46,210 bases of DNA from contig CAZXJB010000002.1 of NCBI GenBank assembly GCA_964640965.1, positions 1 to 46,210 of the forward strand, written 5' to 3'. Every line of letters starts with the position of its first letter. The stretch's first letter is position 1. This document shows positions 9,536 through 36,419 of this stretch, one piece after another. The position numbers were made by a program, and so were the translations under genes. The stretch comes from an uncultured Actinomycetes bacterium. Lineage in GTDB: Bacteria > Actinomycetota > UBA4738 > HRBIN12. Below the pieces are notes generated by a model. It made no database searches, had not been told where the DNA came from, and saw only the letters and a list, made by a program, of their open reading frames with translations.

Positions 9536-9562
9536 GGCCGCGCCCCCGGTGGGGGGTGCACC

Positions 9563-9635: not shown

Positions 9636-9654
9636 CGACAACCGAAGAGCGCAC

Positions 9655-9729: not shown

Positions 9730-9733
9730 CGAG

Positions 9734-9806: not shown

Positions 9807-9818
9807 CCTCCCCGATGC

Positions 9819-10622
9819 TCAGTTGAGGCCTTCGCGTCCCCGGACCTCGGCCCAGCGACCGAGCACGGCCTGGTACAGCTCGACGGGACGGCCGAGGTCG
9901 CCGGCGGCGAGCGCGGCGATCGCCTCCTGGATGTCCCGCACGCTCCGGTCGTCGTCCAGCTCGTCCCAGCTGAGGAACGCGCACAGGCCGCCGTAGTCGA
10001 GCTCGACGAGCGCGTGCGGGTCGAAGAGCGCGAGCCACTGGTGGAGCTCCACGATCGCTTCCGCCACCTGTCCGAGGTCGGTCCCCCGCAGGACCGGCAC
10101 GGCGCGCTCGGCGCGGCGCATCGCGCGACGGGCGGTCGTGAGGTAGGACAGGTGGTGCCGGCCGTCCCGCTCGAGGATCCGGCGCTCCTCGTCGTCGAAG
10201 AGCACGAACCACCGGACCGGCACGTGCCACGGGCTCTGCATGAGGCTCGCCACCGCGGCAGGGTCCCGGCGGCGCAGGCGCCGGAGCTCGCGCCTGGCGC
10301 GCTTCACCAGGCCCGGAGTGAGGAACGCCTCGGACCCCTCGAAGGGCCGAGCCTCGGCGAAGGCGAGGATCCCCGCGAGGGTGCGCATGCGCGTGCGGAG
10401 CGGACAGACGTAGTAGGCGCCGTCGAGGAGCTTCACGTACGCGCCCTCGTCCTCGGCCGGCACGAGGAGCCCCAGCCCCGAGCCGGCCGAGACCTGTCGG
10501 TACAGCGGCAGCGGCGGGCGGACCATGCCGCCCGCGAGGATGTAGCGCTCCCAGCGCGCGCGCTCGACCGCGGGGAACGCCTCGAGCGGCTGGTACACGC
10601 GCAGCTCGGCCGAGGGGACCAT
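9819..10622 (-). CDS. conserved-looking hypothetical protein
   Basis: Track ORF 9819..10679. High GC3 with non-repetitive composition (MVPSAELRVYQPLEAF...SPWHVPVRWFVLFDDEERRILE...). ATG 10622 is preferred over GTG 10679. No family recognised. Confidence 0.65.
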   Translation of the reverse strand: MVPSAELRVYQPLEAFPAVERARWERYILAGGMVRPPLPLYRQVSAGSGLGLLVPAEDEGAYVKLLDGAYYVCPLRTRMRTLAGILAFAEARPFEGSEAFLTPGLVKRARRELRRLRRRDPAAVASLMQSPWHVPVRWFVLFDDEERRILERDGRHHLSYLTTARRAMRRAERAVPVLRGTDLGQVAEAIVELHQWLALFDPHALVELDYGGLCAFLSWDELDDDRSVRDIQEAIAALAAGDLGRPVELYQAVLGRWAEVRGREGLN

Positions 10623-19603: not shown

Positions 19604-20503
19604 CTACCCGGCCCGGGAGGCCTCGCCGAGGCCCTCGGCCACCCACTCGCCCTCGGCGGCCTCGAGGCGGTCCCGCCAGGTGCTGCTCGTCGCGAGCAGC
19701 CCGAAGAACGCGGCGCGGCTGCGCTTGCCGGGGGCGTTCTCCGGCACCTCGGGGACGCCCTCGTAGAGCGTGCCGAGGTACGCGCGGAGGGCGTTGATGG
19801 CCTCCGAGCAGATCTGCGAGACCCTGGCCTCCGTCACCCCGAGGTCCTCGGCGATCTCGCGGAGCATCTCGCCGCCGAGGTAGTAGCGCTCGATCACGGT
19901 CCGCTGGGTCGGAGGGAGGTTCCGCACGGCGGTGCGGAGGGTGCCGATCAGCTCGCGGCGCTCGAGCGCCTCCTCGGGCAGGATCTCGGAGCTCGTCTCC
20001 TGGATCTGCTCGGCGAGCGAGCCGTCCTCGTCCTCGTAGGAGTGGTCCAGGTGCAGCAGGGTCGCGCGCTCCACCGAGGCGCGCAGCTCGCGGAGCTCCT
20101 CCACCCCGATCCCGAGCTCGGCGGCGATCTCCTCGTCCCGGGCGGCGCGCCCGTGGCGCTCCTCCAGCCGCTCCTCGACGCGACGCAGGTCTCTCGCGCT
20201 GCGGCGGAGGGCGCGGGCGGCCCAGTCGCGGTCCCGGGTCGAGTCGATGATCGCCCCGCGGATCCGCACCATGGCATATCGCGGGAAGGGGACGCCCATC
20301 TCCGGCCGGTAGCGGTTGGCGGCCTCCACGAGCCCGCGGGCCCCGGCGTTCCAGAGCTCCTGTCGGTCGACGTGCCGCGGGTAGCGGGCTGAGACCTGGT
20401 TCACGACGTGCTGGACGAGGTCGAGGTTGGCGAGGATCAGCGACTCCGGCGTCGCGCCGTCGGTGGCTCCGGTCGCGACGTGACCGCGAAGGTTCCGCTC
20501 CAC
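19604..20503 (-). CDS. fliA: flagellar sigma factor, FliA/WhiG (sigma-28) family, with a ~50-aa C-terminal extension
   Basis: Region 2 is NLDLVQHVVNQVSARYPRHVDRQELWNAGARGLVEAANRY...PFPRYAMVRIRGAIID. Region 4 is LPPTQRTVIERYYLGGEMLREIAEDLGVTEARVSQI. GTG start with GAGGGGGG SD. Confidence 0.9.
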   Translation of the reverse strand: MERNLRGHVATGATDGATPESLILANLDLVQHVVNQVSARYPRHVDRQELWNAGARGLVEAANRYRPEMGVPFPRYAMVRIRGAIIDSTRDRDWAARALRRSARDLRRVEERLEERHGRAARDEEIAAELGIGVEELRELRASVERATLLHLDHSYEDEDGSLAEQIQETSSEILPEEALERRELIGTLRTAVRNLPPTQRTVIERYYLGGEMLREIAEDLGVTEARVSQICSEAINALRAYLGTLYEGVPEVPENAPGKRSRAAFFGLLATSSTWRDRLEAAEGEWVAEGLGEASRAG

Positions 20504-20745: not shown

Positions 20746-20773
20746 CTTCAGCGGCGCCAGGGTCCGCCGACGG
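20746..20773 (+). promoter_or_regulatory. sigma-28-type promoter candidate upstream of the M15 peptidase gene
   Basis: CTTCAG-N14-GCCGACGG, ending 9 nt before ATG 20783. One member of the nine-site motif family. Confidence 0.6.
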
Positions 20774-24321: not shown

Positions 24322-24834
24322 TCAGAGCTCCCGATCGACGCGGGCGGGCCTCGGGACGACCGGCTCCCGACGACCCGAGGGGTCGTAGGTGTCCCCCACC
24401 TCGTCACCGACGAGGGCGTCGAGGTTCTCGCGGACGTGCTCGGCGGCGGCCGCCGCAACCCGGCGGTTCTCCGCCGCGACCTCCTCAATCTCCTCGACGA
24501 GCTTGCGGAAGCCATCGCGGTGCTCCCGGAACATCGTGGCCGCCGGCTCCGGCGCGTGCTCGGCGAGGTAGGAGAGGCTGAGCCGCTCCGCCGGCACCCC
24601 CCACTCCTCCGCCAGGCGCGCGACGGCGGTCGCCCGCAGCAGCTCCGCCTCGCGCAACCGCTCGATCGCGATCTCGACCTCACCGAGGGCGGGGGTCACG
24701 AAGGCCCGCGCGTCGGCAGCGAGCACCAGCCGCGCCGTCACGAGCTTGAACAGCAGGAACTCCAGGAGGTGCCGCTCGGCCCAGAGCCGCTGCATGAGCT
24801 CGTGCAGGCCCTCGGAGGGAGGATGCCGGCCCAT
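24322..24834 (-). CDS. flgN: FlgN-like flagellar export chaperone (assigned by position, size and helical character)
   Basis: 170-aa helical protein immediately upstream of flgK (LHELMQRLWAERHLLEFLLFKLVTARLVL). ATG 24834 lies in frame at the tail of artefactual track ORF 24322..25986. Confidence 0.6.
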   Translation of the reverse strand: MGRHPPSEGLHELMQRLWAERHLLEFLLFKLVTARLVLAADARAFVTPALGEVEIAIERLREAELLRATAVARLAEEWGVPAERLSLSYLAEHAPEPAATMFREHRDGFRKLVEEIEEVAAENRRVAAAAAEHVRENLDALVGDEVGDTYDPSGRREPVVPRPARVDREL

Positions 24835-24841
24835 GTCAGCC

Positions 24842-24869
24842 CCGTCGGCCGGTCGGGGACGGTCTGAAG
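24842..24869 (-). promoter_or_regulatory. sigma-28-type promoter candidate for flgN-flgK-flgL-fliW-csrA
   Basis: The minus strand reads CTTCAG-N14-GCCGACGG-GGCTGAC-ATG, which implies a leaderless or near-leaderless transcript. Confidence 0.55.
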
Positions 24870-24901
24870 GGGTCGCCGTGGGCCTTCCGAGCTCCGCCGT
24901 T

Positions 24902-24923
24902 CGGCCGCTCCACGGAGCGGCCG
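24902..24923. promoter_or_regulatory. perfect palindrome CGGCCGCTCC-AC-GGAGCGGCCG in the flgN / GGDEF-like divergent spacer
   Basis: 10-bp arms read directly. Sits 33 nt upstream of the flgN -35-like box. Confidence 0.4.
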
Positions 24924-25084
24924 GAGTAGGGTACGGTGGACGGTGGGTCCGCCTCGCGGGCCGGTGCGCGGGGTCCGGGCGTCGATCGGGGGTGATCGCA
25001 ACGCCGAGGAGAGGCAGGTCCGATCGTCCGGGCGATGCGGCCGCCGAAGGAACCCCCGAGGCGGAAGCCCGGGACGAAGGCGAG

Positions 25085-25651
25085 GTGGAGCGGCTCCGTG
25101 CGGAGCTCCGCCGCCTGACCGAGGAGATCGGGTTCCTCCGCCTGCAGCTCGACACGCTCACGACGATCGACCCGACGACCGGCCTCCTCAACCGGAACGG
25201 CTTCGTCGAGGCCATCGAGATGGCGCTGCAGCGCCTCGACCGTCTCGCGGAGCCCTTCGCGCTCACCGGTGTGTACCTGCCCGGGCTGCCCGAGCTCATG
25301 GCCCCCGACCCCGACCGGGCTCCCGAGGTGCTCCGCCACGTGGCCGCGCTGCTCGCGGCCTGCGTCCGCAGCCTCGACCGGGTGGCGCGCCTGGACGAGC
25401 GCACGTTCGCCGTGATCGCCCCGACGGTCTCGCGCCGCGACCACCTCGTGCAGCTGAACCGTATCCGGAGCGTGCTCACGGCCGCGGCGGTGGTCCCCGA
25501 AGAGCTCGGCGACCGCGAGCTCGACGTGCGCTTCGCGGTGGTGGTCGTCGAGGCCGTCGGCGAGCACGGCCCCGAGGACGTGCTCCAGGCGCTCATCGAG
25601 GCGCTGCGACGGGCCCGACCCGACCGCCCCGAGCTCGTGCTCAGGCCGTGA
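25085..25651 (+). CDS. coiled-coil + degenerate GGDEF domain protein (active site DERTF, I-site RSLD retained)
   Basis: DPTTGLLNRNGFVEAIEMAL...VLRHVAALLAACVRSLDRVARLDERTFAVIAP aligns position-for-position with the PleD-type VLREVARRL..VRAIDLPCRYGGEEFVVIMP (recalled from memory). GTG 25085 (GAAGG SD, and GC3 rises here) is preferred; GTG 24992 is possible. The 3' end overlaps the fliH 3' end by 11 nt (convergent). Confidence 0.7.
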   Translation: MERLRAELRRLTEEIGFLRLQLDTLTTIDPTTGLLNRNGFVEAIEMALQRLDRLAEPFALTGVYLPGLPELMAPDPDRAPEVLRHVAALLAACVRSLDRVARLDERTFAVIAPTVSRRDHLVQLNRIRSVLTAAAVVPEELGDRELDVRFAVVVVEAVGEHGPEDVLQALIEALRRARPDRPELVLRP

Positions 25652-26225
25652 GGCCCCCACCCGAGGCCCCGAGGACCTCGCCGATCGCCTGGCACGCCGC
25701 GTCGTAGGTGAGGTCCGCGGAGGACCAGGGGCCGCGGAGCCGGGCCTCCCCCGGCGCGAGCGACGCGTCGCCCCGGAGCGTGACCGTCGCCGGATCCAGG
25801 GCCTCCCGCAGCGCGGGCACGTGGTCGGGATGTACGGTGAGCTCGAGCGGCGCGTCGTCGATCGCCTCGAGGGCCTGGCGCACGCGCGCGAGCACCGTCG
25901 AGGCCTCCACCGGCTCGCGCCCGAGGACGTGCCGGACGATCCGGAGGGCGAGGTCCACCACGCGCCCGGCCTCCTCGACGCGCCACCGCCGGAGCGTCTC
26001 GATGCCTTCCTCGAGCCCCGCCCGGACCTCCGCGAGGAGCTGCACCGCGGCGTCGGCGGCCGCCGCCCGACCCTCCTCGAACCCGGCGGCACGCCCGCGC
26101 TCGAACGCGTCTCGACGCTCGGCCTCGAGCAGGGCGACGAGCTCGGCCGGCAGGGCGTTCGGCGAGGGCACGTCCACCCGCCGCGGGTGCGCGACCACGC
26201 TCGGACGTCGGAGCACGCTACTCAA
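25641..26225 (-). CDS. fliH: flagellar assembly protein FliH
   Basis: Located after fliG. Central Ala/Glu-rich helix ERRDAFERGRAAGFEEGRAAAADAA. C-terminal domain LELTVHPDHVPALREAL...VTLRGDASLAPGEARLRG. Confidence 0.8.
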   Translation of the reverse strand: MSSVLRRPSVVAHPRRVDVPSPNALPAELVALLEAERRDAFERGRAAGFEEGRAAAADAAVQLLAEVRAGLEEGIETLRRWRVEEAGRVVDLALRIVRHVLGREPVEASTVLARVRQALEAIDDAPLELTVHPDHVPALREALDPATVTLRGDASLAPGEARLRGPWSSADLTYDAACQAIGEVLGASGGGLTA

Positions 26226-27246
26226 CGAGCGCCCCCTCGCCGTCGTGGCGCATGACGATCTTCCCCTCCTCGTCCAGGCGGCGAATCACCGCGACGATCT
26301 TGCTCTGCGCCTCCTCGACGTCCCGGACCCGCACGGCCCCCAGGGCCTCGACCTCCTCGAGCAGGGTCTGGCGGGCGCGCTCGGAGAGGTTCCGCAGGAC
26401 GACCTCGCGGACCTCCTCGCTCACCCCCTTCATCGCGAGCGCCAGCACCTGAGGCTCGACGCTCCGCAGGATCTCCTGGATGTCACGGTCCCGGAGCTGC
26501 ACGATGTCCTCGAACAGGAACATGAGGGACCGGACCTGGTCGGCGAGCTCGGGCGAGTAGCTCTCCAGGCCGGAGAGGATCGCGCGCTCGGTCGCGCGGT
26601 CCGCGCTGTTCAGGATGTTCGCGAGCTCCTTCACCCCGCCGCGCTGCGTGAGCTCGGTCTGCGTGCCCGTGCGGCCGAGCTGGGCCCGGAGCGACTCCTC
26701 CGCGCGGCGGATCAGCTCCGTCGGAACGCGCTCCATCCGCGCGATCCGGACCGCGACGTCCGCGCGCAGAGCGGGCTCCAGCCCCGACAAGACCGTCGCC
26801 GCGTGCATGGGCGGCAGGTGCGCGAGGACGACGGCGATCGTCTGGGGGTGCTCCCCCTGCAGGTACTGGACGAGCTCGCCCGGCTCCACCTCGAGGAGGA
26901 AGCTGAACGGGGTCGCCAGGGAGGCGCTCACGATCCGCTCGATGATCTCGTCGGCGCGTCCCCCCTTCCAGGTCGACAGCAGCTCCTTCGCGTACTCCAC
27001 GCCGCCGCGGAGCACCGCCTCGCGCGCGGCGGTCTCCCCTTGGAGCTCCTCGAGCACCTCGTGGAGGACCTCGGACGGCAGATGTCGGAGGTTGGCGATC
27101 TCGGCCGCCAGGGCCTCGATCTCCTCCTCGGTCAGGTACTCGAGCAGCTTCGAGGCCTCACGGGTCCCGATCGCGACGACGAGGGCCGCCGCCTTCTGCG
27201 GCGGCGCGAGGTTCCCCCGTCGGATGTCGAGCTGGTTCGTCATCAC
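26218..27246 (-). CDS. fliG: flagellar motor switch protein FliG
   Basis: PPQKAAALVVAIGTREASKLLEYLTEEEIEALAAEIANL...ERVPTELIRRAE...MFLFEDIVQLRDRDIQEILR...VSEEVREVVLRNLSERA. Confidence 0.93.
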   Translation of the reverse strand: MMTNQLDIRRGNLAPPQKAAALVVAIGTREASKLLEYLTEEEIEALAAEIANLRHLPSEVLHEVLEELQGETAAREAVLRGGVEYAKELLSTWKGGRADEIIERIVSASLATPFSFLLEVEPGELVQYLQGEHPQTIAVVLAHLPPMHAATVLSGLEPALRADVAVRIARMERVPTELIRRAEESLRAQLGRTGTQTELTQRGGVKELANILNSADRATERAILSGLESYSPELADQVRSLMFLFEDIVQLRDRDIQEILRSVEPQVLALAMKGVSEEVREVVLRNLSERARQTLLEEVEALGAVRVRDVEEAQSKIVAVIRRLDEEGKIVMRHDGEGALVE

Positions 27247-28731
27247 CTACCGCCTCCGATCCGCCAGCCACGAGCGCAGCAGGGTGGCGATCTCCTCGGG
27301 CTGGCGCTGCACGAGCTCCATCACGTCCGTGGTCGCGGGCCGTGCCGCGAGCGGTGGGGCCGCCGCGGGCCCTTGCTGCGAGGCGGGCAGCTGCTCGGGC
27401 TGGATGAAGGCGAGCTCCGGCGGGGGCTCCGCACGGCGCCGGCCGCGTGAGCGGAGCATCATGAGGAACAGGGCGGCGCCGACGAGCAGGACGACGAGTC
27501 CCCCCGCGAGCCGAGGGGCCTTTGCCAGGAGCCCCGGGGCGGCGGCCTCCTTCCTCGGCTCGGGCTTCGGGAAGGGCATCTGGGTCACCTCGATCGTGTC
27601 GCCCCGGGCCGGATCCAAACCCAGGGCGGCCGAGACCACGGCTCGCACCTGCCCGGGGTCGGCCGGGGTGATGCCCGTGTTGTCGCCGTTGTCCATGACG
27701 ACGGCCACCGACAGGCGCTCGACGTCGCCCGGGGCCTGCACCGTGGTCGTCGCCTCGCGGCTGACCGCGAAGGTCTGGCGCTCCTCCGTCCGCTCGTAGC
27801 TCACGTTCGAGCCCGGCGGCACCGCCCCCGTATCCGCCCCCCCTTGGTCGAGGACCTCGCGGGTGGAGGACGAGTCGATCGGGACGGCGGTCCCCGGATC
27901 CACGGTCTCGGTCTCCGTGGAGGTCTGGTCGAAGTTCAGCTGGGCGCGGACCACCACGGACGCGGTCTGTCCGCCGGGCACGCTCGCGAGCAGCCGCTGG
28001 ACGTCGGCGGCGAGGGCCCGCTCGTACTCGCGCGTGAGCTCCAGGGTCCGGCCGCCCGTGAAGCCGAGGGGATCGTCCCCCGGAGCGGCCAGGACCGTCC
28101 CACCGGTGTCCGCGACGGTCACGGCCTCCGGCGTGAGCCCGGGGACGGCGTTCGCGACCAGGAAGACGATGGAGCGGACCTGCTGCTCGCTGAGCGGCGC
28201 CGCTGGATCGACGAGGACCGAGGCCGTGACGTCCGGCCGGCCCTGCTCGAACGGCGACCGCTCGGGGATCGCGAGGCGCACGCTCGCGCCCGCGATCCCG
28301 TCCATCTCCATCAGCGTGCGCGCGAGCTCCCCCTCGAGCGCCCGCTGGTAGTCCACGCGCTGCTGGAAGTCCGTCGCGCCCAAGCCCTGCTCGTCGAACA
28401 GCTCGTAGCCCGGCGGGAGGGTCTGCCCGGAGACCCCGGCCTCGGCGAGCGAGGCCCGGACCCGGTAGACCTGGTCCTGGGGGACCATCACGCGGGAGCC
28501 ACCGCCCTCGATGCGGTACGGCACCCCCTGCGCGTCGAGCTCTTGCACGACCTGCGCGAGCCCCTGGTCGTCGAGGTTCGCGTACAGCAGCGCGTAGCTC
28601 GGGGTCGTGAGCCAGCGCACGAACGCCACGGCGGCGAGCGCCAGGACGATCAGGCACACGACGATGCCGACCTGCTGCGCCGGCGTGGTCATCGCGAGGA
28701 AGCCGCGGATCCTGTGCTTCAGCTGCTCCAT
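27247..28731 (-). CDS. fliF: flagellar M-ring protein FliF
   Basis: N-terminal TM VGIVVCLIVLALAAVAFV, then YALLYANLDDQGLAQVVQELDAQGVPYRIEGGGSRVMVPQDQVYRVRASLAEAG, and a C-terminal TM plus the FliG-binding tail. Confidence 0.92.
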   Translation of the reverse strand: MEQLKHRIRGFLAMTTPAQQVGIVVCLIVLALAAVAFVRWLTTPSYALLYANLDDQGLAQVVQELDAQGVPYRIEGGGSRVMVPQDQVYRVRASLAEAGVSGQTLPPGYELFDEQGLGATDFQQRVDYQRALEGELARTLMEMDGIAGASVRLAIPERSPFEQGRPDVTASVLVDPAAPLSEQQVRSIVFLVANAVPGLTPEAVTVADTGGTVLAAPGDDPLGFTGGRTLELTREYERALAADVQRLLASVPGGQTASVVVRAQLNFDQTSTETETVDPGTAVPIDSSSTREVLDQGGADTGAVPPGSNVSYERTEERQTFAVSREATTTVQAPGDVERLSVAVVMDNGDNTGITPADPGQVRAVVSAALGLDPARGDTIEVTQMPFPKPEPRKEAAAPGLLAKAPRLAGGLVVLLVGAALFLMMLRSRGRRRAEPPPELAFIQPEQLPASQQGPAAAPPLAARPATTDVMELVQRQPEEIATLLRSWLADRRR

Positions 28732-28840: not shown

Positions 28841-28868
28841 CGGTCGGCGGGCGCGCGGGCCGCTTAAA
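28841..28868 (-). promoter_or_regulatory. sigma-28-type promoter candidate for fliF-fliG-fliH
   Basis: The minus strand reads TTTAAG-N14-GCCGACCG, about 110 nt upstream of the fliF ATG. Confidence 0.55.
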
Positions 28869-28927: not shown

Positions 28928-29215
28928 TCAGCGCGGGGCGGACAGGTAGCCGCGGGCCGCGCGACGCGCGTCCCGCCCGGTCCGCAGCTCCGCGGCGGTC
29001 TCTCGCAGCGCCGCGAGGATCCGCGCGCGGCACGCCTCCGCCCGGGCGAGCAGGCGTTCGAGCCGTTCGGCGTCACGGGGGCCGAGTCCGGACGGGGGCT
29101 CGGACGGGGGCGTCCAGGTCGGCACGTCGTCCCAGGCTCCCGTCTCCAGGGCGCGCTCGATCGCGGACAGGCGGGCCTCGAACCCGTCCAGGGCGGCGGA
29201 GAAGGACCGGCTCAT
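28928..29215 (-). CDS. small helical hypothetical protein in the fliT position (95 aa)
   Basis: The ATG overlaps the fliD stop (ATGA). MSRSFSAALDGFEARLSAIERALE...AERLERLLARAEACRARILAAL. No family recognised; not FlgM-like. Confidence 0.5.
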   Translation of the reverse strand: MSRSFSAALDGFEARLSAIERALETGAWDDVPTWTPPSEPPSGLGPRDAERLERLLARAEACRARILAALRETAAELRTGRDARRAARGYLSAPR

Positions 29216-31110
29216 GACCCACCTCCGGTGAGGCTCGCGAGCTGGGCCGCAAGCCAGTTCCCCTGGGCCGCGAGCCCCGACAGCGCGGTCTCCATCGCCG
29301 CGAAGCGTCGCCGGAGCTCGGCCTCGCGGAGCTCCAGTCGGCGCTCGAAGGCCTCGATCTGATCGTCGATCAGGGTGACCTGGGAGCGCCATCGCTCGGA
29401 CGCGAGGCTCACGAGACCGTCGACGCCTTCGGTGGCGGAGAGCACACGCGAGAGCCGACCCACGAACCCTTCCGTGTACACGAGGGTCCCGAGGGCGAGC
29501 GACCCCCCCGCGGCCGCGACCTCGTCGGGGGTCGCGGTCACCCGGACCTGCAGGCCCGCGGCATCACCGCTGGAAGCGGTGAGCACGAGCCCGGCGCCCT
29601 GGGCCGCCGTCCCCCCGATCGTGCCCGCCGCATCGACCCCGGTGAAGGTCCCGTTCAGACCGAACGCGTCGGCGCCGGACACGGTGAAGCTCACCGCCGA
29701 CCCGTAGCGGGTCCCCGCCAGGCGGATCGCGCCGGAGCCCGGATCGGAGGCGACGACGGTGGTGATCCCCGCCGCCTCCAACGCGTCGTTGATCGCCCCG
29801 AGAGCCTGCTCGAGCGTGCTCCCGGCGGTGACGGTCACCGTCGCGACACGGGATCCCACCGTCACCGTGAAGGTCTCGTCGACCGCGGGCGCGGCGTAGA
29901 CGCTCCCGACGACCTCGGGAGCCTCCGCGGCCTGGGTGAGGACGATCGCGTACGTGCCGGGCCGCGTGGCATCGGTCGCGTAGGCGAACGAAGCGCGCAC
30001 GTCGCTCGCGGTCCCGGTCCTCGCGAGGACACCCACCACCGATCCGAAGTCCCGCCGCAGCGCCTCGCGCAAGGCCGACCCGTTCACCGCGAAGGTCCCA
30101 TCCCGCGAGAGCGTGATGCCGATGGAGGACGCCGACGTGAAGGCACCGCCGAGCCCAGAGACCCGGTCCGAGACGGCCGACCGCAGGTCCATGAGCAGGC
30201 GCCAGGCGGCGGGGTCCCCCTGGAGCGTCCCGGCCCGCTTGCTCTCGGGGTCGTAGCGGGTGAGGTCCTGCAGGGTGGTGATCGCGCGGTTGACCTCCTG
30301 GATGAGGCCCTCCGCCGCGGCGGCCACGCCCTCGACGTCCCGCTCGACCGAGACGGTCACCGGGGCGGCGCTCGTCGCCTTCAGGGTGAGCTTCACCCCC
30401 GCGAGCAGGTCCTCGATCGTGTTCGACGGGCGGGTCACGGTGAGCGCGCCGGCCCCGCTCCCGACCGTGAGCTGGGCGTCCACGCCCTGCTCGACGACGT
30501 CAAAGGTCGCGAGCCCGGTCTGGGTCCCCGAGACCGTGAACGCCGCGTCCGCGCCGCTGTCCTCCGCCGCGAGGAGGAGCCGGTAGCTCGTCCCGTCCAC
30601 CGAGACCACGGTGGCGCGGACGCCGGCGTCCAGGGCGTTGATCTCGTCCGCGAGCTGCTGGAGGGTCGTCGAGCCCGTCGTCGTGACCACGTGGCTCGCC
30701 GTCCCTCGGGTGATCGTGAGGGTCCCAGCGCCGACCGCGGCCCCCGGCCCCGAGAAGGATCCCGCGCTCGCCACCTGGTGGCGCGTGGCCAGCCGGTCGA
30801 CCGTGAAGGACAGGCCCGCGGGGGTGACCTCCCCCGTCACCTCGGCCTGGACCACGGATGCGTCGCTCGAGGAGGCCGTGCCGAACGCCCGGAGATCCGA
30901 CGCCTGCTTCAGACGATCCACCGCTGCCCGGATCGCCGCGAGCCGCGTCTTCACCGTCCCCCAGGCGTCGATCTTGGCCCGGTACGCGGCCTGGCGGGTC
31001 TGGAGCCGGACGATCGGCGCCCGCTCGAGCTGCATGAGCTGGCGCACGATGCCGTCGGTGTCCAGGCCCGAGACGAGACCTCCCACGGAGAACAGCGGCG
31101 TCGCCATCAT
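29212..31110 (-). CDS. fliD: flagellar filament cap protein FliD
   Basis: FSVGGLVSGLDTDGIVRQLMQLERAPIVRLQTRQAAYRAKIDAWGTVKTRL at the N-terminus and RRLELREAELRRRFAAMETALSGLAAQGNWL at the C-terminus. Confidence 0.9.
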   Translation of the reverse strand: MMATPLFSVGGLVSGLDTDGIVRQLMQLERAPIVRLQTRQAAYRAKIDAWGTVKTRLAAIRAAVDRLKQASDLRAFGTASSSDASVVQAEVTGEVTPAGLSFTVDRLATRHQVASAGSFSGPGAAVGAGTLTITRGTASHVVTTTGSTTLQQLADEINALDAGVRATVVSVDGTSYRLLLAAEDSGADAAFTVSGTQTGLATFDVVEQGVDAQLTVGSGAGALTVTRPSNTIEDLLAGVKLTLKATSAAPVTVSVERDVEGVAAAAEGLIQEVNRAITTLQDLTRYDPESKRAGTLQGDPAAWRLLMDLRSAVSDRVSGLGGAFTSASSIGITLSRDGTFAVNGSALREALRRDFGSVVGVLARTGTASDVRASFAYATDATRPGTYAIVLTQAAEAPEVVGSVYAAPAVDETFTVTVGSRVATVTVTAGSTLEQALGAINDALEAAGITTVVASDPGSGAIRLAGTRYGSAVSFTVSGADAFGLNGTFTGVDAAGTIGGTAAQGAGLVLTASSGDAAGLQVRVTATPDEVAAAGGSLALGTLVYTEGFVGRLSRVLSATEGVDGLVSLASERWRSQVTLIDDQIEAFERRLELREAELRRRFAAMETALSGLAAQGNWLAAQLASLTGGGS

Positions 31111-31143
31111 CCCCTCCTCACGGGCGCATCCTCACGGACGCGG

Positions 31144-31171
31144 GGGGTGGCGCCCGGACGGACGCCACCCC
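31144..31171 (-). terminator. hairpin downstream of fliC copy 1 (GGGGTGGCG-10 nt-CGCCACCCC)
   Basis: 9-bp GC stem 28 nt after the fliC stop. No U-tract. It is followed by the SD GGAGGGG and the ATGATG start of fliD. Confidence 0.45.
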
Positions 31172-31198
31172 ACCGATCGTCGCGGTCCGGTCCCACGG

Positions 31199-32029
31199 CT
31201 ACCGCAGCAGCTGGAGGACGGACTGCGGGACCACGTTGGCCTGCGCGAGCATCGCCGTGCCGGCCTGGAGCATGATCTGGTGGCGGGTGAAGCTCGCCAT
31301 CTCCAGGGCCATGTCCGTGTCGCGGATCCGCGACTCGGAGGCCGAGAGGTTCTCCAGGGCGACGTTGAGGTTGGCGATCACGTGCTCGAGCCGGTTCTGG
31401 GTGGCCCCGAGGGTCGCCCGCACGCTCGAGACGTCGGCGATCGCGGTGTCCAGGGTCGAGATCGCCGTCTCGGCGTCGGTCGTGACGTCCACGCCGGTGA
31501 GGTCCACCGAGAAGATCCCGGCCGCCCCGGTCGTGTCGATCTGCAGGTCGTCCGCGATCACGAGCTGGTGGTTGGCGCCCGAGCCCGGCCCGACGTGGAA
31601 CACGAGGTTCGTGCTCGAGTAGTCCTGGAACACCGCCGAGCCCGCGAAGGTCGTGCGGGCCCCGATCGCCGAGAGCTCGGTGACGAGCTCGTCGATCTCG
31701 GCCTGCTGGGCCGTCCCGTCGGTGGTGGCGGTGTTGGCCGCCGAGACCGCGAGGTCGCGCATCCGCTGCAGGATCGCGTGGACCTCGTTCAGCGCGCCCT
31801 CGGCCGTCTGGACGAAGCTGATGCCGTCCTGGGCGTTCTGGACCGCCTGGCGGGTGCCGCCGATCTCGGCCCGCAGGCTCTCGGACTTGACCAGGCCGGC
31901 CGCGTCGTCGGCCGCCCGGTTGATCCGGAAGCCGCTCGACAGCTTCTCCAGGGACTTGGAGAGCTGCGTGGTCGTCACGGCGAGGTTGCGGTACGCGTTG
32001 AACGCCGCGACGTTCTGGTTGATGCGCAT
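31199..32029 (-). CDS. fliC: flagellin, copy 1
   Basis: MRINQNVAAFNAYRNLAVTTTQLSKSLEKLSSGFRINRAADDAAGL ... ASFTRHQIMLQAGTAMLAQANVVPQSVLQLLR. Confidence 0.95.
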   Translation of the reverse strand: MRINQNVAAFNAYRNLAVTTTQLSKSLEKLSSGFRINRAADDAAGLVKSESLRAEIGGTRQAVQNAQDGISFVQTAEGALNEVHAILQRMRDLAVSAANTATTDGTAQQAEIDELVTELSAIGARTTFAGSAVFQDYSSTNLVFHVGPGSGANHQLVIADDLQIDTTGAAGIFSVDLTGVDVTTDAETAISTLDTAIADVSSVRATLGATQNRLEHVIANLNVALENLSASESRIRDTDMALEMASFTRHQIMLQAGTAMLAQANVVPQSVLQLLR

Positions 32030-32033
32030 CTCC

Positions 32034-32042
32034 CACCTCCTT
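32034..32042 (-). promoter_or_regulatory. fliC Shine-Dalgarno AAGGAGGTG (candidate CsrA site 2)
   Basis: The minus strand reads ACAAGGAGGTGGGAG-ATG, so a GGA motif lies within the SD. Confidence 0.6.
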
Positions 32043-32059
32043 GTCGCATCGGCGCATCA

Positions 32060-32075
32060 CCGACCTCCGTGTCGG
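32060..32075 (-). promoter_or_regulatory. 5'-leader hairpin CCGAC-ACGGAG-GTCGG (candidate CsrA site 1), fliC copy 1
   Basis: GGA is presented in a 6-nt loop on a 5-bp stem, starting about 9 nt downstream of the -10-like box. Confidence 0.5.
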
Positions 32076-32083
32076 CAGGTGGC

Positions 32084-32111
32084 CCGTCGGCGGGGGTCGG
32101 TGGGGGTTAAG
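32084..32111 (-). promoter_or_regulatory. sigma-28-type promoter candidate, fliC copy 1
   Basis: The minus strand reads CTTAAC-N14-GCCGACGG, 55 nt upstream of the fliC ATG. Confidence 0.65.
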
Positions 32112-32114
32112 GGG

Positions 32115-32138
32115 GGTGAAGGCCGGAGGCGCTTCACC
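32115..32138 (-). terminator. hairpin GGTGAAG-10 nt-CTTCACC immediately after the fliS stop
   Basis: 7-bp stem 9 nt downstream of the fliS TGA. The same sequence recurs at 33556-33579. Confidence 0.4.
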
Positions 32139-32146
32139 GGCGAGGT

Positions 32147-32551
32147 TCAGCCCGTCGCGGCACGCCCGAACGCGCCTGAGACCACCGCGTGGTCCCAGGC
32201 CTCGCGGAGCTCTCCGAGGACCTGGAGCACGGGCTCCAGGGGCTCGGGGTCCTTGGCCACGTTGGCCTCGATCAGGCGCTCGAGGCAGAAGGCGTACAGC
32301 GAGGCCAGGTTCGCCGCGACCGTCCCGCCGCGCTCCAGATCCAGGGCCATGCGCAGCTCGAGCACGATGCTCTGGGCCCGCACGAGCTCCCGATGGGCCC
32401 CCTCCAGGTCGCGCCCGTCGCCGAGCGCCTCCCAGGCTCGTGCCGTCGCGGTCACGGCGCCGTCGTACAGGGCGAGCACGAGCCGCTCCGGGCTCGCCGT
32501 CTCGATGGCGCTCTTCAGGTAGGTGTCGGGGTAGCTGCCGGGTCCCATCAT
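32147..32551 (-). CDS. fliS: flagellin-specific chaperone FliS
   Basis: YLKSAIETASPERLVLALYDGAVTATARAWEAL...AQSIVLELRMALDLERGG.VAANLASLYAFCLERL. Confidence 0.9.
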   Translation of the reverse strand: MMGPGSYPDTYLKSAIETASPERLVLALYDGAVTATARAWEALGDGRDLEGAHRELVRAQSIVLELRMALDLERGGTVAANLASLYAFCLERLIEANVAKDPEPLEPVLQVLGELREAWDHAVVSGAFGRAATG

Positions 32552-32584
32552 CCCCTCCTCACGGGCGCATCCTCACGGACGCGG

Positions 32585-32612
32585 GGGGTGGCGCCCGGAC
32601 GGACGCCACCCC
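32585..32612 (-). terminator. hairpin downstream of fliC copy 2
   Basis: Same sequence as 31144-31171, inside the repeat. Confidence 0.45.
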
Positions 32613-32639
32613 ACCGATCGTCGCGGTCCGGTCCCACGG

Positions 32640-33470
32640 CTACCGCAGCAGCTGGAGGACGGACTGCGGGACCACGTTGGCCTGCGCGAGCATCGCCGTG
32701 CCGGCCTGGAGCATGATCTGGTGGCGGGTGAAGCTCGCCATCTCCAGGGCCATGTCCGTGTCGCGGATCCGCGACTCGGAGGCCGAGAGGTTCTCCAGGG
32801 CGACGTTGAGGTTGGCGATCACGTGCTCGAGCCGGTTCTGGGTGGCCCCGAGGGTCGCCCGCACGCTCGAGACGTCGGCGATCGCGGTGTCCAGGGTCGA
32901 GATCGCCGTCTCGGCGTCGGTCGTGACGTCCACGCCGGTGAGGTCCACCGAGAAGATCCCGGCCGCCCCGGTCGTGTCGATCTGCAGGTCGTCCGCGATC
33001 ACGAGCTGGTGGTTGGCGCCCGAGCCCGGCCCGACGTGGAACACGAGGTTCGTGCTCGAGTAGTCCTGGAACACCGCCGAGCCCGCGAAGGTCGTGCGGG
33101 CCCCGATCGCCGAGAGCTCGGTGACGAGCTCGTCGATCTCGGCCTGCTGGGCCGTCCCGTCGGTGGTGGCGGTGTTGGCCGCCGAGACCGCGAGGTCGCG
33201 CATCCGCTGCAGGATCGCGTGGACCTCGTTCAGCGCGCCCTCGGCCGTCTGGACGAAGCTGATGCCGTCCTGGGCGTTCTGGACCGCCTGGCGGGTGCCG
33301 CCGATCTCGGCCCGCAGGCTCTCGGACTTGACCAGGCCGGCCGCGTCGTCGGCCGCCCGGTTGATCCGGAAGCCGCTCGACAGCTTCTCCAGGGACTTGG
33401 AGAGCTGCGTGGTCGTCACGGCGAGGTTGCGGTACGCGTTGAACGCCGCGACGTTCTGGTTGATGCGCAT
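32640..33470 (-). CDS. fliC: flagellin, copy 2 (identical protein)
   Basis: The 276-aa translation is identical to 31199..32029. Confidence 0.95.
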   Translation of the reverse strand: MRINQNVAAFNAYRNLAVTTTQLSKSLEKLSSGFRINRAADDAAGLVKSESLRAEIGGTRQAVQNAQDGISFVQTAEGALNEVHAILQRMRDLAVSAANTATTDGTAQQAEIDELVTELSAIGARTTFAGSAVFQDYSSTNLVFHVGPGSGANHQLVIADDLQIDTTGAAGIFSVDLTGVDVTTDAETAISTLDTAIADVSSVRATLGATQNRLEHVIANLNVALENLSASESRIRDTDMALEMASFTRHQIMLQAGTAMLAQANVVPQSVLQLLR

Positions 33471-33500
33471 CTCCCACCTCCTTGTCGCATCGGCGCATCA

Positions 33501-33516
33501 CCGACCTCCGTGTCGG
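33501..33516 (-). promoter_or_regulatory. 5'-leader GGA hairpin, fliC copy 2
   Basis: Repeat copy of 32060-32075. Confidence 0.5.
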
Positions 33517-33524
33517 CAGGTGGC

Positions 33525-33552
33525 CCGTCGGCGGGGGTCGGTGGGGGTTAAG
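33525..33552 (-). promoter_or_regulatory. sigma-28-type promoter candidate, fliC copy 2
   Basis: Repeat copy of 32084-32111. Confidence 0.65.
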
Positions 33553-33572
33553 GGGGGTGAAGGCCGGAGGCG

Positions 33573-33600
33573 CTTCACCGGCGAGGTTCGCGGCCGACCG
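33573..33600 (+). promoter_or_regulatory. sigma-28-type promoter candidate for the HD-GYP gene
   Basis: The plus strand reads CTTCAC-N14-GCCGACCG, ending 10 nt before ATG 33611. The -35-like box lies inside the 1045-bp repeat and the -10-like box lies outside it. Confidence 0.55.
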
Positions 33601-33610: not shown

Positions 33611-35140
33611 ATGGCCGCGACGGAGGAAGCGCTCGGCACGGCACCGGAGGAGGCCCCCGCAGGGACGGCGCCCTCGGAGCCGACCCAGGACGGCACCGCG
33701 CCGTCGCGGACCGACGCGTCCCGGATCGCCGCGCTGTGGCTGCCCGAGGCCTCGCTCGAGCGGCTGCGCTCGGCCTTCGGGGGCGAGATCGGGCAGGACG
33801 TCGGCGACGTGGATGGGGCCGACGCGGTCGTGATCTCCACCCGGGGTCCGCGCGCCCGCGCCATCCCAATCGCGCGGGAGCTCCGCGCGGCGCGAGCCCC
33901 CGGTGTGGTCGTCTGCCATCCCGGGGGCGAGCACGTCGCCCTGGAACTCGTCCGAGCCGGCGCGACGGCCGTCGTCGCGGAGGGGAACGAAGCCGCCATC
34001 CCGGCCCTCCTCGGCGCCGGCGGCGAGGACGAGCCGCTCCTCATCGCCTTCGAGCAGCGCGGGGGTCTGCAGCGGACGGCGCCGGGGGCGACGCCGGGCA
34101 GCGACGCGGTCACCGGCCTGCCCGCCGACGACGCGTTCCACCAGCGGCTCCGCGAGCTGGGCGAGGCCGGGACGCCCGCCCGGGTGGGTCTCGTCGAGGT
34201 CGTGAACGTGCAGGAAGCGACCGCGGGCCTGGACCCACAGGCCCGCGAGGTCCTGCGCCGCCGCGTCTCCGCGCTGTTCCGCAGCCTGGCTGAGCAGGCG
34301 AGGGCGGAGCTGTTCCTCCTCGGGCCCGCGCGCTACGCGTTCCTCGCCCGCGAGCTGTCCGCGGAGCGGGCGCAAGAGCTCGGCCTCGCCATCATGCAGG
34401 TCGCGCGCTCCTTCGCGCCCGGGGGCACCGTCCCCCTCCGCGCCTGCGTCGGCCACGCCGGCCCCGAGATCGCCCAGGACCTCTCGATGCTCACCAGGCT
34501 CGCCGAGCGGGCCCTGGAGGCGGCGCGCGAGCAAGCGACGGGGGCCGTCGTGAACGCCGAGCACCTGCCGACCTCGACGATGGCCTCCACCGAGCTCGAC
34601 CTCGCCCTCCGCCTGGTCGCCTACCTCGACGAGCACGACGGGTACCCCGGCTCGCACAGCGAGCGGGTCGCCGAGCACGCGGCCGAGCTCGGGCGGCAGC
34701 TCGGCTACGACGGCCGTGACCTGCTGCGGGTGCGCCTCGCCGGCCTGCTCCACGACATCGGCAAGGTCGGGATCCCGCCCGAGGCCGTCCGGGGGCCCGA
34801 CGGTCTCGAGGGGGACACCCTCGAGGCCTACCGCCGGCACGTGGAGCGGGGGGCCCGGTACGCCCGCGCGAGCGCCGGCCCCCTCGTGGCGGAAGCCATC
34901 CGCCATCACCACGAGCGGTGGGACGGGACCGGGTTCCCCGACGGGCTCGCGGGGGAGCAGATCCCCATGCTCGCGCGGATCCTCGCGGTCGCCGACGCCT
35001 ACGACCGGCTCCGCACGACGCCCAGCGAGGACGGGACGGCCACCTCCTCCGCGGAGTGCGTCGAGCGCCTACGTCAGGGGGCGGGCTCGGCGTTCGACCC
35101 GATCGTCGTCGAGGCCGCCGAGCTCGCGTTCCCCCGCTGA
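33611..35140 (+). CDS. HD-GYP domain protein with N-terminal receiver-like and degenerate GGDEF-like regions
   Basis: C-terminal LLHDIGKVGIP...IRHHHERWDGTGFPDGL...LAVADAYD is HD plus HHExxDGxG(Y/F)P. The middle region, DAVTGLPADDAF...LFLLGPARYAFLA, is GGDEF-like with no GG(D/E)EF. ATG 33611 lies in frame in track ORF 33482..35140. Confidence 0.85.
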   Translation: MAATEEALGTAPEEAPAGTAPSEPTQDGTAPSRTDASRIAALWLPEASLERLRSAFGGEIGQDVGDVDGADAVVISTRGPRARAIPIARELRAARAPGVVVCHPGGEHVALELVRAGATAVVAEGNEAAIPALLGAGGEDEPLLIAFEQRGGLQRTAPGATPGSDAVTGLPADDAFHQRLRELGEAGTPARVGLVEVVNVQEATAGLDPQAREVLRRRVSALFRSLAEQARAELFLLGPARYAFLARELSAERAQELGLAIMQVARSFAPGGTVPLRACVGHAGPEIAQDLSMLTRLAERALEAAREQATGAVVNAEHLPTSTMASTELDLALRLVAYLDEHDGYPGSHSERVAEHAAELGRQLGYDGRDLLRVRLAGLLHDIGKVGIPPEAVRGPDGLEGDTLEAYRRHVERGARYARASAGPLVAEAIRHHHERWDGTGFPDGLAGEQIPMLARILAVADAYDRLRTTPSEDGTATSSAECVERLRQGAGSAFDPIVVEAAELAFPR

Positions 35141-35439
35141 TCCGCGATCCCCCGCTGGTCCGCGATCCCCCGCTGATCCGGGGAGCCCACGCTCTCGGTC
35201 TCGGCCGCGACCCCCTCCCCCGCCCTCGACCCGCCGTCCGGGTTGGGGAGCGGGGGCAGGAGCGAGCGCAGGCCGGCCGTGAGCGCCCTCCCGACGACCA
35301 TGCACACGGCGAGCGTGGCGGCGGCCCGCAGGGCCGCGTCCTCGGGCGAGAGGGAGCCGAGCGCGAGCATCAGGCCCACCGGAGCGAGCACCAGGAGGCC
35401 CGCCGTGGCGACGAGCCTGCGGACGGGGGGCGCCGTCAT
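35074..35439 (-). CDS. small 2-TM membrane protein with a DQRGIA-repeat tail, hypothetical
   Basis: The ATG overlaps the flhF-like stop (ATGA). MTAPPVRRLVATAGLLVLAPVGLMLALG...LAVCMVVGRALTAGL. GC3 is high throughout. The 3' 67 nt overlap the convergent HD-GYP gene, so the true stop is uncertain. Confidence 0.45.
   Translation of the reverse strand: MTAPPVRRLVATAGLLVLAPVGLMLALGSLSPEDAALRAAATLAVCMVVGRALTAGLRSLLPPLPNPDGGSRAGEGVAAETESVGSPDQRGIADQRGIADQRGNASSAASTTIGSNAEPAP
35131..35180. repeat. 18-bp tandem repeat, ~2.8 copies (CCCCCGCTG[A/G]TCCGCGAT)
   Basis: Units at 35131-35148 and 35149-35166 (1 mismatch), with a partial third at 35167-35180. The first unit contains the HD-GYP stop codon. On the minus strand it encodes DQRGIA repeats. 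Confidence 0.85.
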
Positions 35440-36419
35440 CGCCGTGCCACCAGGTCGCGGATTGCGAGGGCCACGTCCACCGCGGTGGCCCGCACCACCC
35501 GGGCCCCGACCACCCCGTAGCCGAGGATCGCGCCGTCCTGCGCGCACCAGCGGAGCGCCTCGGCGACGTCCCCCGGCTCCACCCAGGAGACGACCTTCGG
35601 GCGCCACTCGCGCAGGTGCTGCGCCCCCGGCCCGCCGAGGACCGCGTGGACGTACCGGCCGGCCTGCGCCCGAGCGAGCCACGCGAGGTCGGCGCCGCCC
35701 TCGTCCAGGAGCACGCAGACCGTGCCCTCGTTGCGGGGCAGCTCCGGGGATCGGACCAGCGGGAGCTCGAGCGCCCGGGCCAGCCGGTCGGCGTGGGGAC
35801 CGATCACGAGGGCGGGGCCATCCGGCGGCGGAGGACAGTGGCGCGCCACCCAGCCGGCGATCGCCGCCACCCACCCGAGGTCGTCGCGGGGCGCGAGCCG
35901 AACCACCGCCTCGATGAGACCGTACGGCAGCCCGAGCCGCACGAGCTCGTCGGGGCTCCAGGCCACGGTCCCGAGCCCGAAGGGCGCGGAGGGGGCCGGC
36001 CTCGCCCGCTCCGCTCCTTCGGCGGCCGCGCGCCCCGCCTCCCGCGGGGCGGCGGTGGGGCCCACGCCCGTGAGCGCTCCGTCGGCCGTGATCGGAGCGC
36101 CCACCTCGCGTCCGCGATCGCCGTCCAGGGCTGCGGCCAGGGCCTCGGGGAAGGACGCCCGCTCCGCCGCTCCGCGCGCCGCCTCGGCGCTCATCCGCGC
36201 GAGGGCCGCCGCGTCCGCGGCTCGCGCGGCCGTGAGCTGCACCATCTCCCTCGCGAAGAACCCCGCGATGCCGCCGCGGCGGACCCGCTCGGCGCTCAGG
36301 ATCTTCGCGTCCGCGCCGAGGCGCTCCGTGACGACCTCGAGCGCCTCCTCCGCGCTCGGCGCCTCGACGACGAGGAGGTCGCCCTCCGCCGCCTCACGCG
36401 GGTGCGGGTGCCTGGACAT
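35436..36419 (-). CDS. flhF: FlhF-like protein lacking recognisable GTPase motifs
   Basis: N-terminal LLVVEAPSAEEALEVVTERLGADAKILSAERVRRGGIAGFFAREMVQL resembles the FlhF B-domain. The position after flhA fits. Where GxxGxGKT and DTAGR are expected I read LVIGPHADRLARAL and CVLLDEGG. Confidence 0.65.
   Translation of the reverse strand: MSRHPHPREAAEGDLLVVEAPSAEEALEVVTERLGADAKILSAERVRRGGIAGFFAREMVQLTAARAADAAALARMSAEAARGAAERASFPEALAAALDGDRGREVGAPITADGALTGVGPTAAPREAGRAAAEGAERARPAPSAPFGLGTVAWSPDELVRLGLPYGLIEAVVRLAPRDDLGWVAAIAGWVARHCPPPPDGPALVIGPHADRLARALELPLVRSPELPRNEGTVCVLLDEGGADLAWLARAQAGRYVHAVLGGPGAQHLREWRPKVVSWVEPGDVAEALRWCAQDGAILGYGVVGARVVRATAVDVALAIRDLVARR

Follow-up and report, generated by a model that had tools for sequence, protein, structure and literature searches.

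What does a GGDEF protein do at the edge of a flagellar gene cluster once it has lost the motif after which its domain is named? The question is raised by a 46,210-nucleotide stretch of DNA from an uncultured Actinomycetes bacterium (NCBI GenBank assembly GCA_964640965.1, contig CAZXJB010000002.1, positions 1 to 46,210 of the forward strand), which we refer to as the window. Within it a degenerate GGDEF gene, called X for short (25085..25651, plus strand), lies between two minus-strand runs of flagellar genes, flgN-flgK-flgL-fliW-csrA and fliF-fliG-fliH. A first-pass annotation, made from the sequence alone, had proposed that the product of X has a dead active site (A-site) and a live inhibitory site (I-site), and that it senses c-di-GMP (cyclic diguanosine monophosphate) on behalf of the flagellum. 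Receptors of this general kind are known, as Pseudomonas PelD, Caulobacter PopA and Bacillus YdaK are degenerate-GGDEF proteins that receive c-di-GMP at the I-site. Our analysis leads us to consider it somewhat probable that X is a dimeric I-site receptor for c-di-GMP of the PssE/CdgA/PelD kind, with a flagellar output likely in this organism.

The active site is lost and the inhibitory site is retained

Residue equivalences between X and PleD were taken from the HMMER profile alignment of X to PleD, with residues of X numbered according to its 188-amino-acid (aa) form. The first-pass annotation had matched the two proteins residue for residue, and HMMER reproduces that alignment exactly. The pentapeptide DERTF (D104-F108; 25394..25408, on the plus strand like all motifs of X) takes the place of PleD G368-G-E-E-F372 and so replaces GG[DE]EF, the GG turn having become D-E and the metal ligand E370 an arginine. 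Further upstream, GVYLPGLPEL (25268..25297, plus strand) replaces the D-x-D-x-F-K strand that binds metal and phosphate (PleD D327-I-D329-F-F-K332); the loss of D-x-D had been suspected from YLPGLPEL, which does lie opposite D327-K332. The equivalents of PleD D327, D329, K332, N335 and D344 in X are Y, P, P, A-type and variable residues. The change from GGEEF to DERTF had been taken to make cyclase activity very unlikely, and the loss of these five positions adds to that judgement: X carries neither the GG[DE]EF motif of an active diguanylate cyclase nor its contacts to metal and guanosine triphosphate (GTP). Because the five equivalents are lost and not conserved, X is unlikely to bind GTP, and its A-site appears dead for substrate binding as well as for catalysis. 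We also considered X as a GTP sensor with a PdeA-like GTP-binding A-site, and rejected this because the N335 and D344 equivalents are not conserved in the HMMER alignment.

At the I-site, RSLD (R95-S-L-D98; 25367..25378, plus strand) precedes what was once the GGDEF motif by five residues and aligns to PleD R359-x-x-D362, as the first reading of the RxxD motif had it. The third primary I-site residue, PleD R390, is matched by R126 within LNRIRS (25460..25462, plus strand; lnRiR in X against aeRIR in PleD). By this alignment the complete primary I-site residue set is present in X.

A family with a near-invariant I-site

A search with the single sequence of X found 9 relatives only. The profile search yielded about 93 clusters at 100 bits or more (one short fragment scored 72), all of 165-236 aa, and the next matches, at 52 bits or less, are ordinary GGDEF proteins. 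Source names that include a taxon are all Acidimicrobiia or Actinomycetota. A HMMER search of 1.84 billion representatives returned 48 proteins at E ≤ 1e-30; the 82 best among the new representatives include about 65 small proteins that stand alone and show the same motif pattern. As judged by these searches, X belongs to a sizeable, uncharacterised family in Acidimicrobiia and in metagenome genomes of other Actinomycetota, a family that appears to be new among degenerate-GGDEF I-site receptors of the kind already known.

Conservation within the family (n = 93) separates the two sites. R95 is present in 93/93 members, D98 in 92/93 and R126 in 91/93, and the GG[DE]EF motif is found in none of the 93. 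The former GGDEF loop is now a conserved G-R-[LI]-D-x-x-T-F (D104 in 89/93, T107 in 86/93), while the positions of the metal ligands, of K332 (the transition-state lysine) and of N335 and D344 (the guanine contacts) vary freely. What speaks most strongly for the I-site as the site of function in the family is that its triad is near-invariant while the A-site positions drift. The combination of dead A-site and live I-site, from which a receptor had been predicted for X by itself, gains strength from this family-wide conservation and would mark the family as a whole as candidate receptors.

A GGDEF fold on a predicted coiled-coil stalk

Pfam and NCBIfam scans of X return GGDEF-type families only: Pfam GGDEF (PF00990) matches at E = 4.1e-11 with 43.3 bits against a cut-off of 23.8 and covers profile positions 2-155 of 161, and TIGR00254 scores 39.4 bits against a cut-off of 37.4. 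An AlphaFold model made from 9 sequences had a predicted local distance difference test (pLDDT) score of 52.7 and was set aside; the rerun with the 93 family sequences reached pLDDT 90.1 and a predicted template modelling (pTM) score of 0.83. In this model a 24-residue N-terminal helix (residues 2-25) is followed by the GGDEF alpha/beta fold. A Foldseek search of the PDB matches X to PleD (9g86), GCN4-WspR (3i5c), SiaD (7e6g) and DgcB (6ttr) at E of about 1e-12 to 1e-11, with probability 1.0 for PleD, WspR, DgcB and others, and gives 97 matches at E ≤ 0.001. The first-pass annotation had read a short coiled coil followed by a GGDEF fold and had proposed profile searches and structure prediction as a check; Pfam, AlphaFold and Foldseek all confirm the fold.

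The N-terminal helix, VERLRAELRRLTEEIGFLRLQLDTL (25085..25159, plus strand), would form a coiled-coil stalk of about three heptads. Its positions 4, 8, 11, 15, 18, 22 and 25 are hydrophobic, every one Leu or Ile, and with the exception of position 11 these hydrophobics are kept in 87-93 of the 93 family members. The stalk-plus-GGDEF structures 3i5c and 6ttr are among the Foldseek matches, and in the model the stalk arrangement is that of dimeric cyclases.

Reading frame, start codon and selection

The guanine-plus-cytosine (GC) content by codon position marks the plus-strand frame 24746-25651 as the coding one (0.83/0.44/0.96 at positions 1/2/3 over 25085-25648, and about these values over 25040-25560), and the same measure rules out the long minus-strand open reading frames (ORFs) that run over X (24322-25986 and 24836-26092). 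Close to where the coding signal sets in, the frame offers no more than two starts, GTG 24992, which gives a protein of 219 aa, and GTG 25085, which gives 188 aa, agrees with the database gene call P0001 and has GAAGG 5 nucleotides (nt) upstream (centre at about 7 nt). The first-pass annotation had used GTG 24992. We consider GTG 25085 the more likely start because the composition of 24992-25084 resembles non-coding DNA (0.77/0.68/0.71); the few similar residues that relatives keep upstream of 25085 leave the start unsettled, and the choice affects none of the other results for X. The stop codon, TGA, is at 25649-25651, and the protein would be of about 20 kDa.

X and fliH overlap tail to tail by 11 nt (25641..25651), exactly as first reported. 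The overlap is also 11 nt in two relatives (L011 and L093), 4 nt in two others (L015 and L094) and 0 in L012. X is under purifying selection as estimated from codon substitutions, with dN/dS = 0.23 against the closest locus, L011; for pairs further apart, whose synonymous sites approach saturation, the ratio is 0.31-0.72.

Genomic context across relatives

In the window, the 800 bp between the start of flgN at 24834 and the fliH stop codon (25641-25643, minus strand) hold X. It is divergent from flgN (24322..24834, minus strand; Pfam FlgN E = 2e-13), the first gene of flgN-flgK-flgL-fliW-csrA, and convergent with fliH (25641..26225, minus strand; Pfam FliH E = 1.8e-8, also NCBIfam FliH), the last of fliF-fliG-fliH. 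That X separates these two groups had been noticed before, and Pfam confirms all of the flanking genes.

Locus context was read up to 10 kb on each side of the X homologue. The family falls into four clades, of which clades 1 and 2 comprise sequences of 46-100% identity to X. Six loci of these two clades share the order of divergent flgN, X and convergent fliH-fliG-fliF (the window, L011, L012, L015, L093 and L094); they span 51-100% identity and include a hot-spring metagenome-assembled genome (L011). Clades 1 and 2 also hold L013 and L092, in which flagellar genes have decayed around an intact X. Clade 3 shows the order polyprenyl synthase, receiver (REC), HEAT, glycosyltransferase, sigma-28-family gene, FlgN-like, FlgL-like, X and lysS, with the sigma-28 gene within 2 kb of the X homologue in L001, L016 and L090 (tblastn). 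The largest clade (60 clusters) has clpC, polyprenyl synthase, X, lysS, coaX, panC, fol genes and ftsH. The synteny that the first-pass annotation expected among relatives was therefore found in part: flgN/X/fliH recurs in six loci, but in the largest clade X lies between polyprenyl synthase and lysS.

In clade 3, a trio of REC, HEAT_2 and family-2 glycosyltransferase genes stands between the polyprenyl synthase and sigma-28 genes (L016 5111-7991, L090 4667-7533). This trio may be a c-di-GMP-related polysaccharide module near X.

The flagellar cluster of the window and the position of fliI

The window is a contig of 74% GC whose right-hand two thirds are a flagellar cluster, every gene of which was confirmed by profile searches. 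In descending coordinate, the direction in which the minus-strand genes are transcribed, it begins with flbD-motA-motB-fliL-fliM-fliN-fliP-fliQ-fliR-flhB-flhA and a 327-aa FlhF-like gene, continues with a plus-strand HD-GYP-type gene, fliC-fliS-fliC-fliD, a 95-aa FliT-like gene and fliF-fliG-fliH, and then, beyond X (plus strand), contains flgN-flgK-flgL-fliW-csrA, a VanY-like gene, a FliA/WhiG sigma gene, purF and purM. The FliA/WhiG-family sigma factor (19604..20503, minus strand; Pfam and NCBIfam TIGR02479, 188 bits) lies 4.5 kb from X.

According to the first-pass annotation, X sits exactly where fliI and fliJ would follow fliH. We find no vacated slot. The window ends just upstream of flbD, and a related metagenome contig (L021), whose MotA is 89% identical to that of the window, carries flgB-flgC-fliE-fliI, a 140-aa gene at the fliJ position, a gene with an SLT domain and flgD-flgE upstream of flbD-motA (3738-9938); its fliI has the ATP-synt_ab and T3SS_ATPase_C domains. 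Since fliI directly follows fliE in L021, gene order indicates that it is fliF-fliG-fliH (25641-28731) that has moved in this lineage, out from between fliE and fliI to its present place downstream of fliD and the FliT-like gene. We rejected X as a replacement of fliI/fliJ, because X is no ATPase and because fliI stands after fliE, upstream of flbD-motA, in L021.

Several other features of the window were recorded. A perfect direct repeat of 1045 bp (31104-32148 and 32545-33589) comprises fliC and its promoter region, with fliS between the copies, and gives two identical flagellin genes; an assembly effect could also account for this in a metagenome contig. The 327-aa gene right after flhA (35436-36419, minus strand) matches FlhF over its first ~85 residues only (TIGR03499, E = 8e-9), and its product shows no GTPase domain in the searches made; FlhF was reported absent from later-branching actinobacterial classes in a 2023 survey. 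The 95-aa gene (28928-29215, minus strand) overlaps the fliD stop by 4 nt, matches FliT weakly (E = 0.0034) and is kept at 95-100 aa in L011, L012, L015, L093 and L094. The left part of the window is of housekeeping character (glnA, nadE, a major facilitator superfamily transporter, mscL and 2-oxoacid dehydrogenase E1/E2 genes) and includes four transfer RNA (tRNA) genes found with Rfam, one at 6229-6303 and three clustered at 9563-9806 (plus strand). There, a plus-strand ORF of 967 aa (118-3021) has glutamine synthetase domains from residue 544 only, and the minus-strand ORF 1-1584 that overlaps it has the better codon-position GC; for both of these reasons the true glnA start is probably near 1700, with a separate minus-strand gene running off the contig end.

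Promoters and c-di-GMP genes at the flagellar locus

A sigma-28/WhiG-type motif, T[TC][AC]A-N15-16-[GA]CCGA, was derived from the fliC upstream regions and occurs at 10 sites in the window against 1.8 expected. Such sites precede flgN (TTCA-N15-GCCGACG; 24843..24868, minus strand), both fliC copies (32085-32110 and 33526-33551, minus strand), fliF, where it would be the fliF-fliG-fliH unit's own promoter (28842-28867, minus strand), the VanY-like peptidase gene (20747-20772, plus strand) and the HD-GYP gene (33574-33599, plus strand). The flgN site is conserved in L011, L012 and L015. Because it ends about 8 nt before the ATG, the site suggests a near-leaderless flgN transcript. The published WhiG1 pattern CTCA-N16-17-GCCGA occurs in the window at chance level, and TAAA-N-GCCGATA has no match there. 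The region between flgN and X, compared in four loci, aligns poorly besides the flgN promoter and shows no conserved element for X. Near X, Rfam matches neither a c-di-GMP riboswitch nor an RNA element of another kind, and the four tRNAs are all that it finds in the window.

Other c-di-GMP-related and regulatory proteins were sought in the window. No PilZ-domain protein occurs among the window proteins scanned, the RsiG motif E(X)3S(X)2R(X)3Q(X)3D is absent from all six reading frames, X has no Pfam match to FlgM at E ≤ 1, and no FlgM is visible elsewhere in the window. Inside the flagellar cluster, the HD-GYP-type protein (33611..35140, plus strand; 509 aa) has Pfam HD_5 at E = 6e-32 together with HD and HHERWDGTGFP motifs, its GYP motif reading GFP. 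By eye, residues ~165-300 ("DAVTGLP...") resemble a second degenerate GGDEF domain, but residues 1-340 have no Pfam match at E ≤ 1. From its motifs this protein is a probable local c-di-GMP phosphodiesterase, and it may be co-regulated with the flagellum, its sigma-28-like site lying 12 nt before the ATG. At the L021 flagellar locus, a minus-strand segment (1140-3556) divergent from flgB (3738) encodes a histidine kinase, a single-domain receiver and a REC-GGDEF protein with intact RRSD and GGDEF motifs, the last a probable active cyclase; the window stops short of this region. With genes for a probable producer (L021) and a probable degrader (window) of c-di-GMP at the flagellar locus, a receptor there is plausible.

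Proposed function and alternative explanations

If X is an I-site receptor, as we are slightly inclined to believe, it would dimerise through its N-terminal stalk and bind c-di-GMP at R95, D98 and R126, probably as an intercalated dimer as in PleD, WspR, PssE and CdgA. The ligand would re-orient the two domains of the dimer, as in inhibited PleD, WspR and DgcB, and the signal would be passed on by changed protein-protein contacts with a partner. The likely flagellar output in this organism would be late gene expression, export or rotation.

A number of observations weigh against this proposal or against its flagellar part. The PleD secondary I-site residue R313 is not conserved, its position being W in most members, with the neighbouring R53 nearly invariant. 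The motif scan finds no sigma-28-type site upstream of X, and a sigma-70 and terminator scan of 24600-25900 was empty, a result that is uninformative at 75% GC; co-regulation of X with the flagellar genes is thus unsupported, since no recognisable promoter precedes X. In the largest clade, the seven loci read (L003-L007, L017, L018) have no flagellar or sigma-28 genes within at most 10 kb per side. X also persists beside decayed flagellar genes: L013 (351-1513) has csrA, a 64-aa fliW stub and intact X followed by glutamate dehydrogenase and cytochromes, L092 (1-1740) packs fused flgN and flgL fragments and a frameshifted fliW into 800 bp, followed by intact X and a 38-residue fliH remnant, and L016 (8051-10582) has an 81-aa flgL remnant beside intact X. 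A csrA or sigma-28 gene survives in these decaying loci as well. Frequent flagellar loss with vertical inheritance is documented in Actinomycetota (PMC10746217).

The simplest reading of these contexts is that X stands at the border of a present or past operon of late flagellar genes, inside a conserved block of housekeeping genes, and survives the loss of the flagellar genes. The description of X as dedicated to the flagellar machinery was therefore too strong, given the position of the largest clade beside lysS and the intact X near decayed flagellar genes. Because the family persists where flagellar genes are absent or decayed, X would be a general c-di-GMP effector encoded at the edge of a late flagellar operon and not an integral flagellar component. 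Since X outlives the flagellar genes and the largest clade lies elsewhere, it is gene position, and nothing else, that suggests a flagellar function in this lineage.

A closer tie to the flagellum, as in the strict form of the first-pass proposal, would exist if X were a dedicated c-di-GMP brake or assembly checkpoint that, once loaded with c-di-GMP, directly binds FliH/FliI, FliG or the MotA/B stator, a non-PilZ analogue of YcgR and MotI. The stable flgN/X/fliH embedding in six loci down to 51% identity, the tail-to-tail overlap with fliH and the lack of a PilZ protein among the scanned window proteins fit such a role. We nevertheless regard it as unlikely, for the largest clade lies in a housekeeping block without nearby flagellar genes, X is intact where flgN, flgK, flgL, fliW or fliH is deleted or fragmented (L013, L092, L016), and X is opposite in strand to the flagellar operons on either side and has no sigma-28-type promoter as they do. 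Another possibility concerns late genes, for which X might be a c-di-GMP-armed regulator, either replacing FlgM in sequestering a FliA/WhiG1-type sigma factor or modulating the FliW-CsrA-flagellin switch. The gene order in Bacillus subtilis is flgM-flgN-flgK-flgL-fliW-csrA, so that X, just upstream of flgN, occupies the place of flgM, and the window shows no FlgM. According to the literature, almost all flagellar clusters of actinobacteria lack FlgM, and the anti-sigma factor of WhiG1 is unknown (PMC12871210, PMC10746217). In addition, the sigma factor lies within 2 kb of X in the flagellar-gene-poor clade-3 loci (L001, L016, L090), csrA and X are still adjacent in L013, and RsiG is a precedent for a c-di-GMP-dependent coiled-coil anti-sigma factor. 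On the other side, X is similar to neither FlgM nor RsiG, the window has no RsiG motif, the largest clade has no sigma-28 gene within at most 10 kb per side, and the adjacency to sigma or csrA genes may be a leftover of a decaying cluster. We judge a late-gene role of this sort very doubtful. Its fullest version is about as doubtful: an X dimer loaded with c-di-GMP at its I-site would be the missing post-translational late-gene regulator of FlgM-less Actinomycetota, sequestering the flagellum-associated WhiG1-type sigma-28 or resetting FliW-CsrA. Such an X would be the GGDEF-fold counterpart of the RsiG-(c-di-GMP)-WhiG2 switch, with its gene at exactly the place of flgM in Firmicutes.

The remaining alternatives deny X a receptor function. 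X might be a nucleotide-independent pseudoenzyme, acting as a scaffold or as a dominant-negative partner that, through its stalk or GGDEF face, pairs with an active cyclase (such as the REC-GGDEF protein encoded beside flgB in relatives) and prevents the productive GGDEF dimer, or it might be a mere c-di-GMP sink. It shares the stalk-plus-GGDEF architecture with dimeric cyclases, an intact REC-GGDEF protein is encoded at the L021 flagellar locus, and CdgA acted as a c-di-GMP sink in E. coli. However, exactly the three I-site residues are near-invariant and all A-site residues have drifted, which argues for ligand binding, and by eye the stalk has no sequence similarity to the L021 REC-GGDEF protein; we consider a pseudoenzyme of this sort improbable. 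That X is still an active diguanylate or other nucleotidyl cyclase with an unorthodox motif is next to inconceivable. A few non-canonical motifs, for example AGDEF, are reported to keep activity (PMC3974145), but in X both metal ligands (PleD D327 and E370), K332, N335 and D344 are replaced, these positions are variable in the family, and the GG turn has become D-E.

Relation to known c-di-GMP proteins

Two degenerate GGDEF proteins offer the closest parallel. PssE of Listeria (DKDDA motif) binds c-di-GMP with a dissociation constant (Kd) of 0.79 uM and 2 ligands per protein (PMC4125290), and CdgA of Bdellovibrio (GVNEF motif) binds it with a Kd of ~2 uM and is a c-di-GMP sink when expressed in E. 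coli (PMC3271064). As in these proteins, GG[DE]EF is destroyed in X (DKDDA, GVNEF and DERTF, respectively) and RxxD is kept five residues upstream. The binding of c-di-GMP is measured for PssE and CdgA and predicted for X. Unlike receptors of the PssE/CdgA type, X is a soluble, stand-alone stalk-plus-GGDEF protein that carries neither a transmembrane module nor a GAF or REC module. The motif that replaces GG[DE]EF in its family, G-R-[LI]-D-x-x-T-F, is conserved in its own right, and its gene belongs to a flagellar cluster, not to a setting of exopolysaccharide, predation or cell-cycle genes.

PleD, WspR, DgcB and SiaD are the best structural matches of X (E ~1e-12, TM-score ~0.7) and likewise have a helix before the domain, and the triad of PleD, of the R359/D362/R390 type, aligns with X residue for residue. 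X differs from all four in lacking the catalytic and substrate-binding residues as well as a receiver or sensor domain. The I-site serves those four enzymes as a feedback brake, whereas that of X would signal.

With the PilZ brakes, YcgR of E. coli and MotI/DgrA of B. subtilis, X would have in common the control of the flagellum by c-di-GMP through a small soluble protein. Its fold and binding motif are unrelated to theirs, however, and unlike them it has no PilZ domain of the kind marked by RxxxR and [DN]xSxxG and is not confined to flagellar contexts. RsiG of Streptomyces and Rubrobacter, the anti-sigma factor of WhiG, resembles X in being actinobacterial, in having a coiled coil and in its dependence on c-di-GMP, which is putative for X. 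RsiG acts on a sigma-28-family factor and does not bind the flagellum-associated WhiG1 clade (PMC12871210). X has neither the RsiG motif nor homology to RsiG, and that it acts on a sigma factor is pure hypothesis. Caulobacter CmrA, a degenerate GGDEF-EAL protein described in a 2026 preprint, shares with X a degenerate GGDEF domain, and its residues at the I-site position matter for a flagellum-linked behaviour; unlike X, CmrA is proteobacterial, and the two have no sequence relation.

Significance for flagellated Actinomycetota

The control of motility by c-di-GMP is well worked out in Proteobacteria and Firmicutes and is much thinner for flagellated Actinomycetota, for which one published account gives no receptor for motility. 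A 2026 preprint states that what regulates WhiG1, the sigma factor associated with the flagellum, is unknown and that FlgM is missing (PMC12871210). The family of X offers a small soluble candidate receptor with a near-invariant predicted binding triad, and with X there is for the first time a concrete candidate for a receptor at the flagellar locus of an actinobacterium. If no more than the conservative reading is right, X is one more degenerate-GGDEF receptor, useful for annotation and unsurprising to a c-di-GMP specialist. If the predicted binding is true, the family would be a widespread effector family of Acidimicrobiia and would give an entry to c-di-GMP outputs in a poorly studied class.

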